A stretch of DNA of 36,232 nt from a virus (taxonomy: Duplodnaviria; Heunggongvirae; Uroviricota; Caudoviricetes), in IMG/VR virus record IMGVR_UViG_2684623127_000008. The stretch is one strand, 5' to 3'. Made by a program: the position numbers. Shown one piece after another: positions 29,601 through 35,600 of this stretch. The stretch's first letter is position 1. Each line of letters opens with the position of its first letter.

Positions 29601-32600
29601 TCTTACTTGGCATTCCCGACTACGCGCTGCTTTTCTCAAATCAGCCATGATTCCTCCTTGCTGCCAGTCGCAACCATTTTTTATCAACCAGGCTGGCGGT
29701 ATATCCGAGCAGTGTTGGTATTTCGGATGGCTTCAGCTCAGGTTTACGCTTACGACGATTTGGTACTTTGTAGATGTGTCCGTTCATGACACGAATAAGC
29801 GGTGTAGCCATTACGCCTCCTGCTTGTCACGCAGCAGCTGGAACTCGCAGCTCTGTGGAATAGTCAGGTGGCAGCCAATATTCATCGCCCAGGCTTCAAC
29901 CTTACACAGGAAGACATACATCTCTCCGGTACCAAGATCGGAGGTATGGCGTAACGACTGGATAGTAGTGATTTCGCCGGTTACGACATCAACCAGGTCC
30001 TTGGTTTCATAACCGAGGTATGTGTGTTTGAGAGCATCTTTTACCCATGCTGAAGTAGCGAACGATTTCCCCCTGCTGATGAGGTATTCACTGATTTCGC
30101 TGTACCACATGTGGCTGAGTGCATTCTGGGAAAGACTGCGTCTCTCGCGCCACGGTTTAAGCACCATGCGAAAGCATTTGCCGTCTTCCAGATAAGTCTG
30201 GATCTGCTGACCGACAGCGGTGAAGTTACCGCGATGTAATTTGATGCCATCTTGTGGGAGGTTCACGCTTCACCTCCGCAGAGATCAAACGCTGGATGCA
30301 AGACATCGCAGGTGCATTTCTGCATCTGTGACAAGGTAAGGAGTTCAGATTGTGGTCGCATTTAAGTCCCCTTAAATGCGCAGAAGTCACCGGAGTTGTT
30401 CAAGCTCCGGTGACATTATTATGGAAGGTTGATACTAAAAAATCAAAAATTGAATATCATTGGCGATAGTCTAGCTTGTGATATCCACAAGCTACTTCAA
30501 TGAAGCGACGAGTAACATTTTGTGTCATCCATGTTTTTTCAGTTAAGTGCCACACCCAGTTCAAAATTTGCTGATGTGTTGAACATGTACTAAGCGGGAT
30601 GTTGTATTCATAAGCAACATTGATTCCGCAAAATCGGTGTCGTGTCATGACCGATTCACGTTGACCTGCGCCCTGTTGAGTGCCTGGGGATATTCTTGCT
30701 CGATAGTTAATATCATAGTAGTTACTTTACTTTCATACCATAGCACGGTTGAAAAAGTGATTATTACTCAAAAATAAACCTCACCATCAACCATATATTT
30801 GAGAGCACTTATCGCCTGCTGGGCGGATATTACTTTCATTAAAGGATAGTGTTTAAAAACAATGCCATTCATAAAATAGATATCACAGGTTTTATTATCC
30901 GTATTAATTATGATTTTTTCGAATATTTTATAGGCAAGTGTACGGCATAACTCTCGTCCATTTTTACTGGTTAAGTCAATAGCATAAAAATCACTGAATG
31001 AATTTACACCTTTACTCTTCAAAGTTTTCAATGATACCAAAGCTCTTCGTAATTCCTTATCTAATAGTCTTATTTTCTCTGCTATAGCGGTAACTTCAGG
31101 CGCGACAGACAATGCAACGATTAAATTATTAATTTTCATCTGAAGCTCAATAATTTTTAACTCTAAAGTTTCATTAGCATCTTTCTTGTTTTCAACTGGT
31201 TGAATTTTGCTACAATTAAAAAGCAATTCATTAATGATATTATAATCAACCAAATCTCTCTTTATTGATGGCCTGTCACATCGATGTAATCTTCTCATCG
31301 GACAAACATAATAGCCATGCAAACTTCCAGATACCGCATGAACAATCATGGTATTACCACAAGCCTCACACTTCATAACTGTTCGAAGTAGATTTATTAG
31401 CATAGGATTCTTGCTACTATTGCTAATACCAAAAGGTGCCAACCGAATTTCCTGTACAGCGTAAAACAAATCATCTGATATGACTCTGGGATAATAGCCA
31501 GCGATTTCACTTATCCCTTTCCCTCTTGCACGATATGAAGGTACGCATATACCTATCAGAGCTTTATTCGCTAATAATTTTTCAATTACAGAAGGCCCCC
31601 ATGCACTTTTTTTTCCTGAGAAATTCTTTACAGCATGATCATTTAAATACTTGGCTATTGCATTCAATGAGCGCCTTTCCATCCTGAGTTTAAAAATTAG
31701 CTCAATAGTTTTCACCCTGTCGGGGTCTGGAACAAAAGCCGTTCTTTTGTCATCTAAGGAGAGCCATCTCGGACAAGACGCCGTCATAATCGTACCTGAT
31801 TCCAGTGCATCCTGCCGTTTTTTCTTCCATGATAATTTAACCCGACTTGACTTTATCTCGCTTTCTTCATTTGCCCTTTGTGCTATAAGTATGGCTTTTA
31901 TTAATGAATATGGCTCATTCAAAGAGTCAATATTATAGACTGTATTGTCGCAAAGAGTTATAACATCAATACCGTGATTCAAAATCAATTTCAGACGTTC
32001 AATCGCTTCACCGACTTTTTCTCTTGAAAGTCTGTCCAGACTTTCAACTAACAATGTAGTTCCTGGCAATATATAACCATGCTCTATAGCATCTAAAAAT
32101 TCCGAAAAAGCTCCTGATTGTGCATGCTTTCCTTTGAATGCACTTAATCCTAAATCTTCATATGTTATGGTATCAAGATAATAATCACTATTTACCTTTA
32201 ACCATTCAGCAATAAGTCTTCTCTGTCGGTTTAATGAGTCGCCAGACATCTGACCTGGTGATGAAAATCGCATATATGCTATGGCTTTTTTCATGGTGAC
32301 ACCTGCTAACTTATGCTTTTATAAACCTTAGTGGTGAGATATAATTTTTGTTTAATTTTTATTTAAAAAGACAATTACGATCACACTATCTTGAATATAC
32401 AACAATAATCGTATTGCAATTTGCTTACGCAATAATCTTGAAGGCACAAAAGAATACACAAAAACTAAAAACATTAACAAAAGCGGCCCATGTAAAGATA
32501 TGAACCGCCATATTGCAGTCTTTTAAAAGAAATTATTTTTAATGTGGTGTGCTTCGTGACAATAAATTAATAACCAACACACCGGCACAAATCAACATCA

Positions 32601-35600
32601 TGCCTATAACGGCTGGCAGGTCCAGCCGTTGGCCGAAAAACCCCCATGATAGTAAGCTAATCAGGACAATACCGACTCCTGACCAGATAGCATAAGCAAT
32701 CCCTGTAGGAATATAAGCCAGCGTCTGAGCTAATAACCAGAATGATGCACAATAACAAATAATTGTACCAACAGATGGCCATAACCGTGTAAAACCTTCT
32801 GAAAACTTCATTAAGGTTGTACCAATGACCTCTGCAAGTATTGCACCACCAAGATAAATATAAGGGTTCATAACATATTCTTTCCTGTTCAAACTGGAGA
32901 GAATTGTACTACAGTTTGAACTCAACTCACCTGTTTCATCATTGTGTACCCATTGATGTTCTTTTATATACCCTCAATACCCGTTTCATCGCGGCACTCT
33001 GGCGACACTCCTTAAAAATCAGATTCGTGCTCACCTTTCCTTCCCGTTCTTCTCTGGTAGCGAACCGGTAATACACCGTTCGCCAGACCTTACCATCAAC
33101 GACCAGGATTCCTGCCCGCGCCATTTTAGCCGCAGCCTGATTTATGCTGGTTACGGTTGCACCTGTTACCGCGGCAACGTCCTGTGCACAGAAGCTCTTA
33201 TGCGTCCCCAGGTAATGAATAATTGCCTCTTTGCCCGTCATACACTTGCTCCTTTCAGTCCGAACTTAGCTTTAATTTCTGCGATCTTCGCCAGAGCCTG
33301 TGCACGATTTAGAGGTCTACCGCCCATAACAGGAAGTTGTTTTACTGGTTCAGGTATCGTCTCACCACGGTTAATTCGCGCTGTCATACAGGTCAGTTCA
33401 TCGGCAGCCTTGCGCCGTAATTCCGCGTCAGTCAGCGCATTGGCCCGCATGTTCTGGTACAAGTTGGTAACCAACCAGTAATGCGCGTTCGATTTCCACG
33501 GATAAGACTCTGCATCCGGATACAGGCCACGCTTCCGGCAATACTCGTAAACCATATCAACCAGCTCGCTGACGTTTGGCAGTCCGGCGATAACGGATGC
33601 TTCTTCCCGGCACCATGCAACAAACTGCCCGGGTGATGGCAGAAATGGTCGATTCTGCCGACGGGCTACGCGCATTCCTGCGTTAACCTGTTCCATTGTG
33701 GTGATCCCGTTTTCCCGGAAAGCCAGAACCCACTGGCGGCGGATTTCGTTCAGTTCGTTCTGGTCACGGTTAGCCAGACTCGCCGGGAAAGTTGCCAGTA
33801 ACTGGCTGAACACACCGTTGATGATCTGCGCTACCTGCTGTACCTGCGGCTTTTCGTCGTACTGTTCCGGCATGTTGTTGGCGATCCGACGCATCTGCTC
33901 ACGGTCAAAGTTAACCATCTGTGCGGCGATGTTTTTCATAAATCCACCCCGTAAATCCAGTCAGTGTTTGTCAGGTCGAGTTTTGGTTTGCTGGCTATCA
34001 TGCCTGCCTGTTGCTTGTTACGGTTGATTTCGAGCTGGGTCCACTTGTCGCGGAGTTTGGCCGGACTTAGCACGTTACCGGACCAGAAGTTGTCCTGGCA
34101 TGCCCAGCGGAACAGCACGCACATGTCGCGGTGGTTACGTCCGTCACGTTCACGCATCAGGCGGATATCGTTAGCCCACCCTGCAAAATTCGGTTTTCTG
34201 GCTGATGGCGCGATGGTCTTCACCATGTCAAACATCCACTCTGCGGCGGTCAGGTCTTCTGCTGTCCCCCACTTGCTGCCGCTCTGAATTGCAGCATCCG
34301 GTTTCACCACAGGAAGATCGTTTTCTGGTTGGTCAGAGGATTCGCCAGAATTCTCGGACGAAAAAGGTTTTATATTGTCTTTTGTTAGTTTGTCTTTTGT
34401 GTTTACCTGATTCGGGTAAACGCCTTTACCTGATTTGGGTAAACTTTTTTTACCTGATTCAGGTAAATTTACCTCTTTCAGGTAAACTTTATTTTTCTTA
34501 CCTGATTCGGGTAATGTTGACCATTCACTGACCACATTATTAATGCCGGTATTCCGCCCGCTCTGAATAAAAATCCCACGCTTTACCAGAACACTTTTTG
34601 CAGCAGAACACTTGTGCGGCAATATCCCGGTTAATTCGGAAAGTTGCTCGTTGCTAACCCAATCCAGTTTTTTATTAAAGCCATATGTTTTGCGCATGAC
34701 AGCCAGAAAGACCAGAAGCTGGTGAAAAATTGATAAATTCAATACTGCATTTCTCAGCATTAAATTTATCTCTATGACCAGTCAAGAGATGTACCTGCCA
34801 TGAGCTTAATATCATGTCAGATATATCGGTCACAAACTCCCTCAGCAGCTAAGAGGAGGACAAATGTCTCGACTAATCACTTTACGGGACTGGGCTAAAG
34901 AAGAATTTGGGGACTTAGCACCAAGTGAGCGAGTTCTGAAAAAATACGCGCAAGGGAAAATGATGGCCCCACCCGCTATAAAAGTTGGTCGCTACTGGAT
35001 GATTGACCGAAATTCCCGTTTTGTAGGAACGCTTGCAGAACCGCAACTCCCAATAAACGCAAACCCAAAACTCCAACGGATAATCGCTGATGGCTGCTAG
35101 CCCCCGATCTCACAAAATCTCTATACCCAATTTATATTGCAAATTAGATAAGCGAACCGGAAAGGTATATTGGCAATACAAACATCCACTATCCGGTCGT
35201 TTTCATAGCTTAGGAACTGATGAGAATGAAGCAAAACAAGTTGCTACTGAAGCAAATACCATTATTGCTGAACAACGTACCCGACAAATATTAAGCGTCA
35301 ATGAGCGTCTGGAAAGAATGAAAGGCAGGCGCTCAGACATTACGGTGACAGAATGGCTTGATAAATATAATTCTATCCAGGAGGACAGGCTGCAACATAA
35401 TGAACTAAGACCCAACTCCTATCGGCAAAAAGGCAAACCCATCCGTCTTTTCCGTGAGCATTGTGGAATGCAACACCTCAAGGATATTACCGCACTTGAT
35501 ATTGCCGAAATAATTGATGCTGTAAAGGCTGAAGGTCATAACAGGATGGCGCAAGTCGTGAGAATGGTGTTGATCGACGTCTTCAAAGAAGCACAACACG

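Follow-up and report, generated by a model that had tools for sequence, protein, structure and literature searches.

The low-GC segment beside ren in the window (the whole stretch of DNA that was analyzed, 36,232 nucleotides, a defective E. coli O157:H7 lambdoid prophage adjoining icd) is best explained as accessory cargo, made of separable pieces, that occupies a hypervariable slot at a fixed place in a lambdoid prophage of the DLP12/Perceval type. Taken as a whole, we consider this explanation somewhat probable. The emrE-ybcK cargo of DLP12-type lambda-like prophages is an already known feature, annotated in K-12 DLP12, in viable phages (Perceval among them) and in complete genomes of more than 1,300 E. 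coli. The present analysis shows the borders of the slot and the composite structure of its contents. It also suggests, from sequence comparison, that ybcK came in on a very small cassette that inserted itself at the end of the emrE gene, and that the copy in the window is now stranded.

The slot is located between ren and the ylcH-ybcN (ninB-like) block:

30449..32973, minus strand: variable cargo slot, which is the entire low-GC module (2,525 bp), delimited by sharp common breakpoints and GC
32939..33241, minus strand: ren, Ren-like exclusion protein (PHROG 142), whose last 35 bp (32939-32973) lie inside the variable slot
30386..30448, minus strand: conserved right slot border, promoter-like TTGATT-N17-CATAAT and then a GTCACCGGAG...CTCCGGTGAC hairpin (consensus scans)

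The GC content of the slot is 0.362, compared with 0.491 and 0.492 in its flanks and 0.523 over all of the window. GC reaches its minimum for any 2.5-kb stretch of the window here (starting at 30415), and the slot lies 4.0 standard deviations under the 12 other non-overlapping windows of the calculation. An earlier examination of this DNA without database searches (the sequence-only reading) had described a compositionally foreign, low-GC cargo module of about 2.5 kb in the nin region at 30420-32940. The windowed GC calculation supports this description, and each of these ends is within about 30 bp of the slot. The altered 3′ end of ren noted at the junction was also confirmed, as the slot begins 35 bp inside the gene; the C-terminus of Ren therefore varies among the cargo variants. 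The module does not replace ninB-ninD as had been supposed, because the ninB-like ybcN is still present and the module sits between ren and ybcN.

Seven lambdoid variants fixed the borders at about 32974 (left) and 30447/30448 (right), and the sharp breakpoints are the same in K-12, E9, Perceval, O104:H4, MS10495 and CI5. The conserved left flank stops at ...GAAACGGGTATTGA, and the right border starts at one and the same base in 7/7 variants. Matches in the consensus promoter scans were no better than chance. These seven variants with identical breakpoints hold six different cargo sets. The comparison with DLP12 and other lambdoid prophages, which had been proposed as a check, found the module in K-12 DLP12 and variable cargo among lambdoids. 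Many cargo sets within sharp common borders make the slot a classic mosaic hot spot. This favors an account in which ybcK is a pure mosaic passenger, an orphan gene gained once by illegitimate recombination (for example from the integration module of another phage) and later shuffled with emrE by homologous lambdoid exchange. The repeats and empty sites described below would then be by-products of joins or deletions between phages with differing emrE-linked cargo, and YbcK would have no sites of its own here. With all its parts taken together, we regard this account as possible, if rather unlikely.

The contents of the slot had been described as a single module. Judging from arrangements in other genomes, the module is composite, with emrE and ybcK as separable units. 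The emrE cassette comprises the following:

32539..32871, minus strand: emrE, small multidrug-resistance efflux pump of 110 aa (Pfam Multi_Drug_Res, E = 3.3e-35; PHROG 1395; RefSeq annotation)
32887..32921, minus strand: hairpin of the emrE cassette, a 13-nt inverted repeat immediately 5′ of the gene (repeat search)

The Multi_Drug_Res match spans profile positions 2-93 of 93. The EmrE sequence MNPYIYLGGAILAEV has Glu at position 14, the membrane-embedded Glu14. SMR transporters have about 110 aa, four transmembrane helices, the SMR fold and this essential residue, and EmrE is assigned to them by its domain match, length and Glu14. The gene occurs without ybcK beside ybcL-ybcM at the fliE locus, where the 13-nt hairpin is also kept, and beside an alpha/beta hydrolase in phage slots. 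An emrE-only class of about 91.5% identity (at least 13 entries) showed the fliE-locus arrangement in the one representative opened. The GC content of emrE is 0.417 against 0.49 in the flanks, the gene is absent from some related phages, and it is reported to be expressed and induced as a moron of Perceval (PMC9928086). Being dispensable, variably present, foreign in composition and prophage-expressed, the emrE cassette has the properties of a moron, and it would give the lysogen a small multidrug efflux pump.

The other unit contains the recombinase gene:

30768..32294, minus strand: ybcK, intact 508-aa large serine recombinase (Pfam Resolvase, Recombinase and Zn_ribbon_recom; PHROG 95 integrase, E = 6.5e-120)

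Both open reading frames named in the sequence-only reading, emrE and the 508-aa large serine recombinase, were found with matching domains. By its domains and residues, YbcK is classed as an integrase-type large serine recombinase, intact and conserved. The N-terminal catalytic domain (Resolvase, E = 4.7e-19) is followed by a C-terminal recombinase domain and a zinc ribbon with an embedded coiled coil. The window protein has R9, S11, D87, R88 and R91, which are invariant in 27 members of the family, and also the four invariant zinc-ribbon Cys (C309, C312, C331 and C339). The family profile matches the TP901-1 catalytic domain, and its positions 191-475 align to the A118 integrase C-terminal domain (E = 7.6e-16). 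The gene differs from that of K-12 at 9/1,527 nucleotides, the ren-to-ybcK block being 97.3% identical to K-12 overall, and its dN/dS of 0.07-0.21 indicates purifying selection. The invariance of the catalytic serine and zinc ribbon across the family points to selection for recombinase chemistry. The searched literature contains no recombination assay for YbcK and treats the protein as uncharacterised.

Purifying selection would also be expected if YbcK were retained for stress tolerance of the lysogen, unrelated to recombination, and over-expression of ybcK raised the sabinene tolerance of BL21(DE3) by 127.7% while knockout lowered it (PMC7181518). However, this is one over-expression phenotype without a mechanism, the invariant catalytic serine and zinc ribbon speak against it, and YbcK matched none of the known defence-system models. 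Such a host benefit is very unlikely to be the reason for its retention. Serine recombinases of cryptic prophages can also be invertases, as are PinQ and PinR, and YbcK might flip a segment in or near the module and so control emrE or a neighbour. A 15-nt inverted repeat at 30752-30766 and 32179-32193, the sole one near the borders, would suit this role. However, the repeat is estimated to be at about chance level for 2.6 kb of AT-rich sequence, one of its arms falls within the coding part of ybcK, K-12 differs at the post-stop arm, and the repeat is absent among the K-12 repeats listed. Small invertases (Gin/Hin/Pin) have about 190 aa, a C-terminal helix-turn-helix and inverted crossover sites; the C-terminal domains of YbcK do not have this layout and are of integrase type. 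No inverted arrangement was seen among the variants sampled. The invertible module, one of the forms suggested in the sequence-only reading, is thus extremely unlikely.

The integration functions of the prophage are found at its edge, where a tyrosine integrase had been noted before:

34864..36232, plus strand: the prophage's own excisionase and tyrosine integrase (Pfam Exc; Arm-DNA-bind_1 and Phage_integrase), icd adjacent in the source genome

Tyrosine Int/Xis occupies the genome edge in both the viable phage Perceval and the window prophage, where it takes the edge beside icd, about 4 kb from ybcK. Since the phage has its own Int/Xis, the serine recombinase is surplus to prophage integration. 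YbcK might nevertheless serve the phage and not a nested element, as a second integrase for an alternative chromosomal site or for phage multimer resolution. Its integrase-type architecture agrees with this, and some relatives lie at prophage ends beside host genes, such as that of Atlantibacter, where 540 bp separate the recombinase gene from the tmRNA gene's 3′ end. In E. coli, however, ybcK is a nin-region gene, well away from either prophage end, and neither placement at an attachment site nor determination of the integration locus was found for it. Module-bearing prophages occupy three loci (argU, icd and beside a ybhC-like pectinesterase gene), which match their tyrosine integrases, and related phages manage without ybcK. 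In addition, a Rho/NusG-dependent terminator in the leader keeps K-12 ybcK silent, and the gene is bound by Hfq-polyphosphate. A second phage integrase is accordingly very improbable. With moderate confidence, these comparisons point to a miniature nested cassette with ybcK as its integrase, and not to an integrase of the phage itself or to an invertase.

The putative cassette sites and the left end of the unit are as follows:

32509..32546, minus strand: left att-like site over the emrE stop codon, with the 15-bp core CATTAAAAATAATTT at 32530-32544
32482..32509, minus strand: terminator-like hairpin 3′ of emrE, within the left end of the ybcK unit (hairpin scan)
Reconstructed candidate cassette site: GGTCACGCCCC-CATTAAAAATAATTT-ATTTTTAAACGAC...

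In other phages, alignments identify the ylcJ-ybcK unit as a discrete insertion of 2,073 bp at a near-palindromic site (TTAAAAATAA-T-TTATTTTTAA) over the emrE stop codon; its ends are repeats, and genuine empty sites exist. In Perceval, a 38-nt direct repeat (84% identical; BLAST E = 2e-6) with an identical 15-bp core at each end lies on both sides of the 2,073 bp. Homologues of the window's left att-like site are the left copy of the Perceval repeat and the Rb-50 empty site. A synthetic empty-site query built from the Perceval repeat gave an uninterrupted 778/778 alignment (98.5-98.7%) in two complete genomes, and at base level the left junction, the right junction and the empty site together fit one crossover within the core. 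When 4 kb was compared, 171 genomes were filled and 2 were empty, and the listed filled genomes all span about 2,073 bp more. The unit measures 2,073 bp in 10/10 viral contigs holding both ends, and empty sites were found in 4 viral and 2 metagenome contigs. An empty-site phage has a different hairpin where the window has the terminator-like one. Matching empty sites in related genomes are thus present, as for an integrative element; repeats at both ends are present in Perceval-type phages and not in the window; and signs of mobility (several loci, a circular form, recent gain or loss) were not found.

The predicted circular junction was not detected in the metagenome or viral contig collections. 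The unit was found only after emrE in every E. coli context examined, and at the chromosomal fliE-locus emrE in 0/5,426 genomes, which gives no evidence for repeated or recent hopping. No empty/filled pair with identical flanks was found, and the K-12 right junction has no recognisable core. The mosaic account is favored by the missing circle junction, by the missing second insertion locus in E. coli and by the old age of the empty/filled polymorphism. It is also favored by the Perceval right repeat, which resembles a shortened emrE 3′ end with GGTCAC microhomology at the joint. Alternatively, this repeat copy may be what remains of the 3′ end of another emrE (TCA CGC CCC CAT TAA). Such a stump may be the product of an illegitimate join between two phages.

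The O157:H7 copy differs from the intact units on its right side and in ylcJ:

32352..32480, minus strand: ylcJ remnant, small hydrophobic ORF, 5′ end lost via a 10-bp deletion versus K-12 (alignment)
30702..30767, minus strand: conserved tail after ybcK, common to K-12 up to 30729 and to E9 and Perceval up to 30702
30668..30706, minus strand: 39-bp scrap from within a P22AR_C (antirepressor-like) gene
30457..30648, minus strand: orf63, small phage ORF (PHROG 2559, full length, E = 4.4e-51), not annotated in RefSeq

The 15-bp core has 1 exact match in the window, the left copy only, against 0.01 expected by chance, and the tail after ybcK stops at a deletion joint with CTATC microhomology. As read from these alignments, the right end of the unit is lost in the window, which would make the unit a stranded remnant. 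PMC6001520 places ylcJ, a small ORF of 49 aa, between emrE and ybcK. The orf63 tail is confined to the O157-type arrangement and present in 301 genomes, and its annotation is 'none' in every full-coverage match among those listed. The DNA right of ybcK differs among K-12, E9, Perceval and O157, with the break 41-66 bp past the stop codon, a variability that also favors the mosaic account. The O157 copy lacks the ybcL-ybcM of K-12, the P22AR_C gene and 260-aa gene of E9, and the hydrolase and right repeat of Perceval, and has instead a deletion joint, orf63 and a damaged ylcJ. Among the forms suggested earlier, the remnant of a nested mobile module fits best, given the 2,073-bp insertion, repeat ends and empty sites elsewhere and the left repeat only here. 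An inactivated recombinase frame together with missing boundary repeats had been named as evidence against such a module; boundary repeats are indeed missing in the window, but the frame is intact and under purifying selection. The earlier interpretation is therefore partly supported overall.

A similar layout is found outside E. coli. In four other genera, a recombinase-bearing segment (2.9-6.9 kb) lies between a full gene and its diverged partial copy, and in every case the recombinase gene starts off 149-463 bp inward of the left repeat and is directed into the segment. Tight pairs of repeats enclose the recombinase at a frequency above that expected from their spacing (P about 0.002); at 24/29 YbcK-family loci outside E. 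coli no bracketing repeats were found. Long diverged flanking duplications could also stem from homologous, Campbell-type crossovers instead of the recombinase. We tentatively propose that a class of miniature integrative cassettes, 2-7 kb long, is defined by YbcK-family recombinases and parasitises temperate phages and plasmids of Enterobacterales. Such cassettes would enter by a single crossover into or beside a carrier gene (emrE, DUF1367, lambda P, DUF2280, pilV-like) and carry a diverged copy of the end of that gene. As a whole, this proposal is plausible and still on the doubtful side. If it is true, the emrE-ybcK linkage in E. coli is the footprint of one such insertion.

The mosaic account leaves several of these observations unexplained: the low dN/dS and full catalytic residue set of an orphan gene, the common left joint of the K-12/AZ146 and Perceval/Rb-50 indels, the right joints of both indels at the emrE stop codon, about 30 bp apart at most, and the same layout, with the recombinase by the left repeat and reading inward, in four other genera. 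In the favored reading of a nested cassette, the ylcJ-ybcK unit most likely entered as a miniature circular cassette, whose site would have been recombined by YbcK with the near-palindromic site overlapping the emrE stop codon. We infer that YbcK itself catalysed the insertion, which would explain why ybcK follows emrE in every E. coli context examined. In the O157:H7 copy, the right end with the second site copy has been lost in a microhomology deletion, so that the unit would no longer be able to excise. Scraps and a small phage ORF now fill the place of the deletion, and ylcJ is damaged. The unit would now move only as a passenger, by homologous recombination in the conserved flanks between phages swapping the slot.

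The DLP12 emrE-ylcJ-ybcK module of K-12 and those of Perceval and other Bievrevirus-type lambdoid phages have the same slot and the same borders, and in DLP12/Perceval-type modules EmrE and the large serine recombinase are annotated in RefSeq and phage records. YbcK resembles large serine integrases of the A118/LI, TP901-1, Bxb1 and phiC31 type in its catalytic domain, recombinase domain and zinc ribbon with coiled coil. Unlike them, it lies away from the phage attachment site, is unused for prophage integration and has an apparent mobile unit of only about 2 kb inside another phage; no partner directionality factor was identified for it. In SCCmec, Ccr serine recombinases insert at the 3′ end of rlmH, which stays intact, and leave short direct site repeats at both ends; SCC elements are chromosomal, tens of kilobases long and encode paired ccrA/ccrB or ccrC. 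The ylcJ-ybcK unit is similar in its insertion at the very 3′ end, which spares the gene, and in its short direct repeats at both ends, but is a 2-kb unit within a phage and encodes just one recombinase. HE-PICI are full, helper-embedded satellites in late genes of lambdoid prophages with a clade of tyrosine integrases (PMC10111431). Both are nested in a lambdoid prophage and targeted to a phage site, whereas the unit has a serine recombinase, almost no cargo and a place in the early-right (nin) accessory slot. Finally, the module resembles phage morons in its foreign composition, dispensability and variable presence, and in the terminator-like hairpin that follows emrE, while the repeat ends and matching empty site of the ybcK part set it apart from ordinary morons.

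The window carries an AT-rich module between ren and the ninB-like gene ybcN. All genes of this region lie on the minus strand:

33936-34760, minus strand, truncated replication gene O'
33238-33939, minus strand, replication gene P
32939-33241, minus strand, ren
32539-32871, minus strand, emrE, Pfam Multi_Drug_Res
32352-32480, minus strand, small ORF, a remnant of ylcJ
30768-32294, minus strand, 508-aa ORF, ybcK, Pfam Resolvase, Recombinase and Zn_ribbon_recom
30457-30648, minus strand, orf63, 63 aa, PHROG 2559
29811-30266, minus strand, ybcN, followed by ninE, ybcO, rusA, ylcG and Q

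The GC content is 0.30-0.41 over about 30300-32950, compared with about 0.50 on either side. The cargo slot proper (30449-32973) has a GC content of 0.362, which is the minimum for any 2.5-kb stretch in the window and 4.0 standard deviations under the remaining non-overlapping windows. The GC profile, ORFs and Pfam matches thus bear out the sequence-only reading, which described a low-GC module with emrE and a 508-aa recombinase, and that description is accurate. A second low-GC patch (23600-24800; 0.34-0.40) maps upstream of the terminase genes, in the ylcI-nohD region, when coordinates are transferred onto the RefSeq record. E. coli O157:H7 genomes match the module region at 100% identity and annotate it with protein ren, emrE, a hypothetical protein, ybcK ('recombinase family protein') and ybcN; in these genomes the excisionase and integrase of the prophage abut icd. 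The tyrosine integrase noticed at the phage edge is indeed present; it is lambda-type (Arm-DNA-bind_1 and Phage_integrase), with an Exc-family excisionase as its neighbour. At 34760-34864 the excisionase gene directly adjoins the N-terminally truncated O gene, and therefore the immunity and recombination (exo/bet/gam) region has been deleted. The prophage is therefore defective, although lambda-like genes for lysis, head and tail, which look complete, make up the remainder of the window.

When the slot was aligned among seven variants (the window, K-12, E9, Perceval, O104:H4, MS10495 and CI5), homology stopped at two identical points in all of them. The left break follows ...GAAACGGGTATTGA at about 32974, 35 bp ahead of the ren stop codon; the C-terminus of Ren therefore varies with the cargo, and the altered 3' end of ren described from the sequence is confirmed. 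The right break lies at 30447/30448, after which every variant has TTGATT-N17-CATAAT and then a GTCACCGGAG...CTCCGGTGAC hairpin. This right border (30386-30448), promoter-like and followed by a hairpin with a 12-bp stem, starts at the same base in the seven variants. A similar hairpin, CCGG..CTGAACA..CCGG, precedes a duplicated DUF1367 gene in a locus outside E. coli (L020). The right border may act more generally in nin regions, as a joint or a regulatory signal. A promoter scan inside the module gave the same number of matches as in shuffled sequence. The cargo between the two breaks is as follows:

K-12 (prophage DLP12): emrE-ylcJ-ybcK-ybcL-ybcM
E9: emrE-ylcJ-ybcK-P22AR_C-260-aa gene
Perceval: emrE-ylcJ region-ybcK-alpha/beta hydrolase (ylcJ is unannotated in the record)
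Window: emrE-ybcK-scraps-orf63
O104:H4: emrE' fused to ybcK' by deletion
MS10495: two unrelated genes
CI5: DUF4145, a theta-like pseudogene and one further gene

The slot is a cargo hot spot. The module does not replace the ninB-ninD interval, as had been proposed, since the ninB-like ybcN is still present. In O104:H4 strain C227-11, the internal deletion joins an emrE 5' fragment to a ybcK 3' fragment, with the catalytic domain gone; this fusion exemplifies decay of the module.

The module is a composite. The order ren-emrE-ylcJ-ybcK is common to K-12, E9, Perceval and the window until 41-66 bp beyond the ybcK stop codon, and the sequences are divergent after that point. Many genomes match the query over emrE alone with about 91.5% identity (13 such matches shown), and 2,803 records lie between 90% and 95% identity to the module query. 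In AZ146, the one emrE-only representative examined, ybcK is absent: emrE is next to fliE, and ybcL-ybcM come straight after emrE. This islet in the fliE-yedF interval has retained parts of the ylcH region together with some of the Q 3' end, and is therefore a decayed DLP12-like prophage; the other emrE-only genomes (about 91.5%) may have the same fliE arrangement. Compared with AZ146, K-12 has a 2,083-bp extra segment with ylcJ and ybcK, the flanks of which sit just 4 bp apart in AZ146. In two E. coli genomes, BHUCD01 and BS-01, the prophage at the DLP12 position matches a fliE-type emrE allele with ylcJ-ybcK attached at 98.1-98.7% identity (K-12, 95.9%), which suggests either that the two emrE copies have undergone gene conversion or that the unit was inserted independently beside another emrE allele.

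Perceval contains two direct copies of a 38-nt repeat (84% identical; BLAST E = 2e-6) that are 2,073 bp apart; the first is located at the stop codon of emrE, the second 282 bp past ybcK, and they share the 15-bp identical core CATTAAAAATAATTT. An empty site was predicted from this repeat and then built as a synthetic query, which gave an uninterrupted 778/778 alignment in two complete genomes (98.5-98.7%). One of these, Rb-50, has the order ren-emrE-hydrolase-ylcH-ybcN. The empty site reads CACCA-core-CTTTTGAATCGAGTG, the left junction CACCA-core-ATTTTTAAACGACTA and the right junction CGCCC-core-CTTTTGAATCGAGTG; at base level the three fit a putative single crossover in the core. The site is near-palindromic (TTAAAAATAA-T-TTATTTTTAA). 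The reconstructed candidate site of the cassette is ...GAGGCTGGTCACGCCCC CATTAAAAATAATTT ATTTTTAAACGACTAAAATATGG..., and the empty site of Rb-50 is ...CACGAAGCACACCA CATTAAAAATAATTT CTTTTGAATCGAGTGAAATAGG.... The Perceval-type right junction is found in 172 genomes. Of the complete genomes compared at this position, 171 have the site filled and 2 have it empty; each filled genome listed has a span about 2,073 bp longer, and the two empty genomes are only 97.7% identical to one another. Viral contigs hold the filled junction in 14 cases and the empty one in 4, metagenome contigs hold the empty one in 2, and the unit measures 2,073 bp in 10/10 contigs with both ends.

On the other hand, ybcK might be a pure mosaic passenger, an orphan gene shuffled between phages. 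We regard this as rather unlikely. Several observations nevertheless speak against a nested cassette inserted by YbcK, whose activity on these sites is a proposal drawn from comparison. The circular or tandem junction had no match in two large public assembly collections that do hold filled and empty junctions, and no second insertion locus was found, as ybcK lies next to the chromosomal fliE-locus emrE in 0 of 5,426 genomes. The filled/empty polymorphism is old, with no filled and empty pair having identical flanks. At the right junction of K-12, no clean site or core is readable; past ybcK, the K-12 and Perceval tails align convincingly only over the first 80 bp or so (score 39.5; shuffles, mean 4.9, sd 12.6, max 45). 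Furthermore, in-frame translation of the right repeat copy of Perceval gives S-R-P-H-stop, like a shortened emrE end, and an illegitimate join of two emrE-bearing phages could also yield this copy.

YbcK matches PHROG 95 'integrase' (E = 6.5e-120). Among 27 aligned relatives, R9, S11, D87, R88, R91 and four zinc-ribbon cysteines are invariant, and the window protein has them all. A profile of the family hits both the C-terminal domain of the A118 serine integrase (7.6e-16) and the catalytic domain of TP901-1; this profile was required, as the single sequence gave no direct match to solved structures at E <= 0.001. With dN/dS of 0.07-0.21 between E. coli alleles, ybcK is maintained and not decaying. 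In K-12 it is normally silenced by a Rho/NusG-dependent terminator in its leader, and its DNA is bound by Hfq-polyphosphate.

Full-length relatives with 36-61% identity occur throughout Enterobacterales, all at accessory positions of mobile DNA: nin-like regions of lambdoid prophages (L020, and the Pantoea locus L023, which has a tyrosine integrase of its own), prophage ends past tail-fibre genes (Atlantibacter, Yersinia and Erwinia) and a plasmid-like region by a pilV-like gene (Citrobacter, L021). The E. coli core motif was not found near the distant homologues, as expected if site specificity has diverged. At four loci outside E. coli, the recombinase segment has a complete gene on one side and, in direct orientation, a diverged, incomplete copy of that gene on the other:

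L020: DUF1367 duplicated over 229 bp (82.5% DNA, 58/60 protein)
L021: pilV-like gene duplicated over about 560 bp (67-68%)
L053: lambda P-like gene duplicated over 380 bp (75%)
L055: DUF2280 duplicated over 248 bp (84%)

As a control, long direct repeats were listed exhaustively for the 29 non-E. coli loci. The recombinase is bracketed by 5 of the 11 repeat pairs, with about 2.5 expected (P = 0.026), and by 3/3 of those with a 2.6-3.6-kb interior; the probability that at least 3 of 7 low-probability pairs bracket it is about 0.002. In all five bracketed cases, E. coli among them, the start of the recombinase gene is 149-463 bp in from the left repeat and the gene is read inward, with cargo, if any, to its right. 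An element carrying its integrase at one end would be expected to have such a layout.

Four of these loci have further features. In the plasmid-like region of Citrobacter koseri (L021, 9013-13561), the YbcK relative adjoins a 555-aa pilV-like gene with a faint Shufflon_N match, and broken copies of the pilV-like 5' part, prepilin N_methyl motif included, lie on its far side. The Atlantibacter relative (L012, 11530-12432) is the final gene of a prophage with Mu-like tail genes; a distance of 540 bp separates its end from the tmRNA gene's 3' end, a well-known target for integration, and it may serve as the integrase of that prophage. In Pantoea coffeiphila (L055, 9562-12476), a pair of 208-aa and 142-aa ORFs is duplicated about 1.25 kb apart within the recombinase segment. 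At L020 (5755-7695), a gene with a SIR2_2 domain and a possible role in defence shares the nin-type accessory region with the closest non-E. coli relative.

Insertion of the unit driven by YbcK is the explanation toward which we lean slightly. It would account for a precise unit of constant size, for empty sites first predicted and then observed, for a near-palindromic site with identical core and similar arms, for a conserved intact integrase beside the left end, and for a layout recurring across the YbcK family. A remnant of a nested mobile module is thus the best supported of the alternatives raised by the sequence-only reading. Its invertible module is not: repeat searches in four variants gave a sole inverted repeat of 15 nt, estimated at about chance level, and YbcK as the switch of an invertible segment was rejected. 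YbcK as the phage's own integrase was also rejected, given the tyrosine Int/Xis at the prophage edge and the varying integration loci. We consider an inversion switch, a second phage integrase and a role in host benefit each very improbable. A defence system was rejected as well, since no PADLOC match was obtained for YbcK, EmrE, orf63 or the ylcJ remnant.

In the window, the unit is stranded. The core motif occurs once (32525-32544), spanning the emrE stop codon. A weak match with 3 mismatches in 20 at the 3' end of Q (28162-28181) is probably AT-rich sequence only. The right end of the unit is missing, compared with E9, by a deletion between two CTATC pentamers; beyond this joint lie a 39-bp piece from the interior of the P22AR_C gene and then about 220 bp with orf63 up to the slot border. 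With its right site gone, this copy is predicted not to excise. The O157-type tail is found in 301 genomes, EDL933 and other O157:H7 strains among them. The orf63 product (30457-30648) is a full-length member of PHROG 2559, with function unknown in PHROG; the gene is unannotated in the RefSeq records checked and is present only with the O157-type arrangement. A 10-bp deletion has removed the 5' end of ylcJ, which is a 49-aa small ORF in K-12 (PMC6001520).

At least 80% of a 3.1-kb query across the module is contained in 1,353 complete E. coli genomes, and a quarter of all complete E. coli genomes have the module. In 12 phage records of the collection, Perceval among them, ybcK is found with 97.6-99.4% protein identity. 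The drug-efflux gene emrE thus rides in an exchangeable slot of viable phages. If YbcK is active on the candidate sites, the fixed emrE-ybcK linkage would be explained, very small serine-recombinase cassettes would be shown to live within phage genomes, and a compact new integrase/site pair would be available for genome engineering.

Both emrE and ybcK have been on the K-12 map for decades, and as an annotated feature the module is ordinary, well delimited and already known. Phage Perceval has a tyrosine integrase and an excisionase of its own; its record describes the gene downstream of emrE as a large serine recombinase with homology to YbcK of DLP12, and emrE is reported to be a Perceval moron induced in DMEM (PMC9928086). 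In the literature, ybcK is listed as one of 16 K-12 site-specific recombinase genes, without known function. The comparison supplies a testable role for this uncharacterised E. coli recombinase, together with candidate recombination sites, a 2,073-bp unit and natural empty sites; what is new here is a specific proposal for the role of ybcK and its putative site of action.
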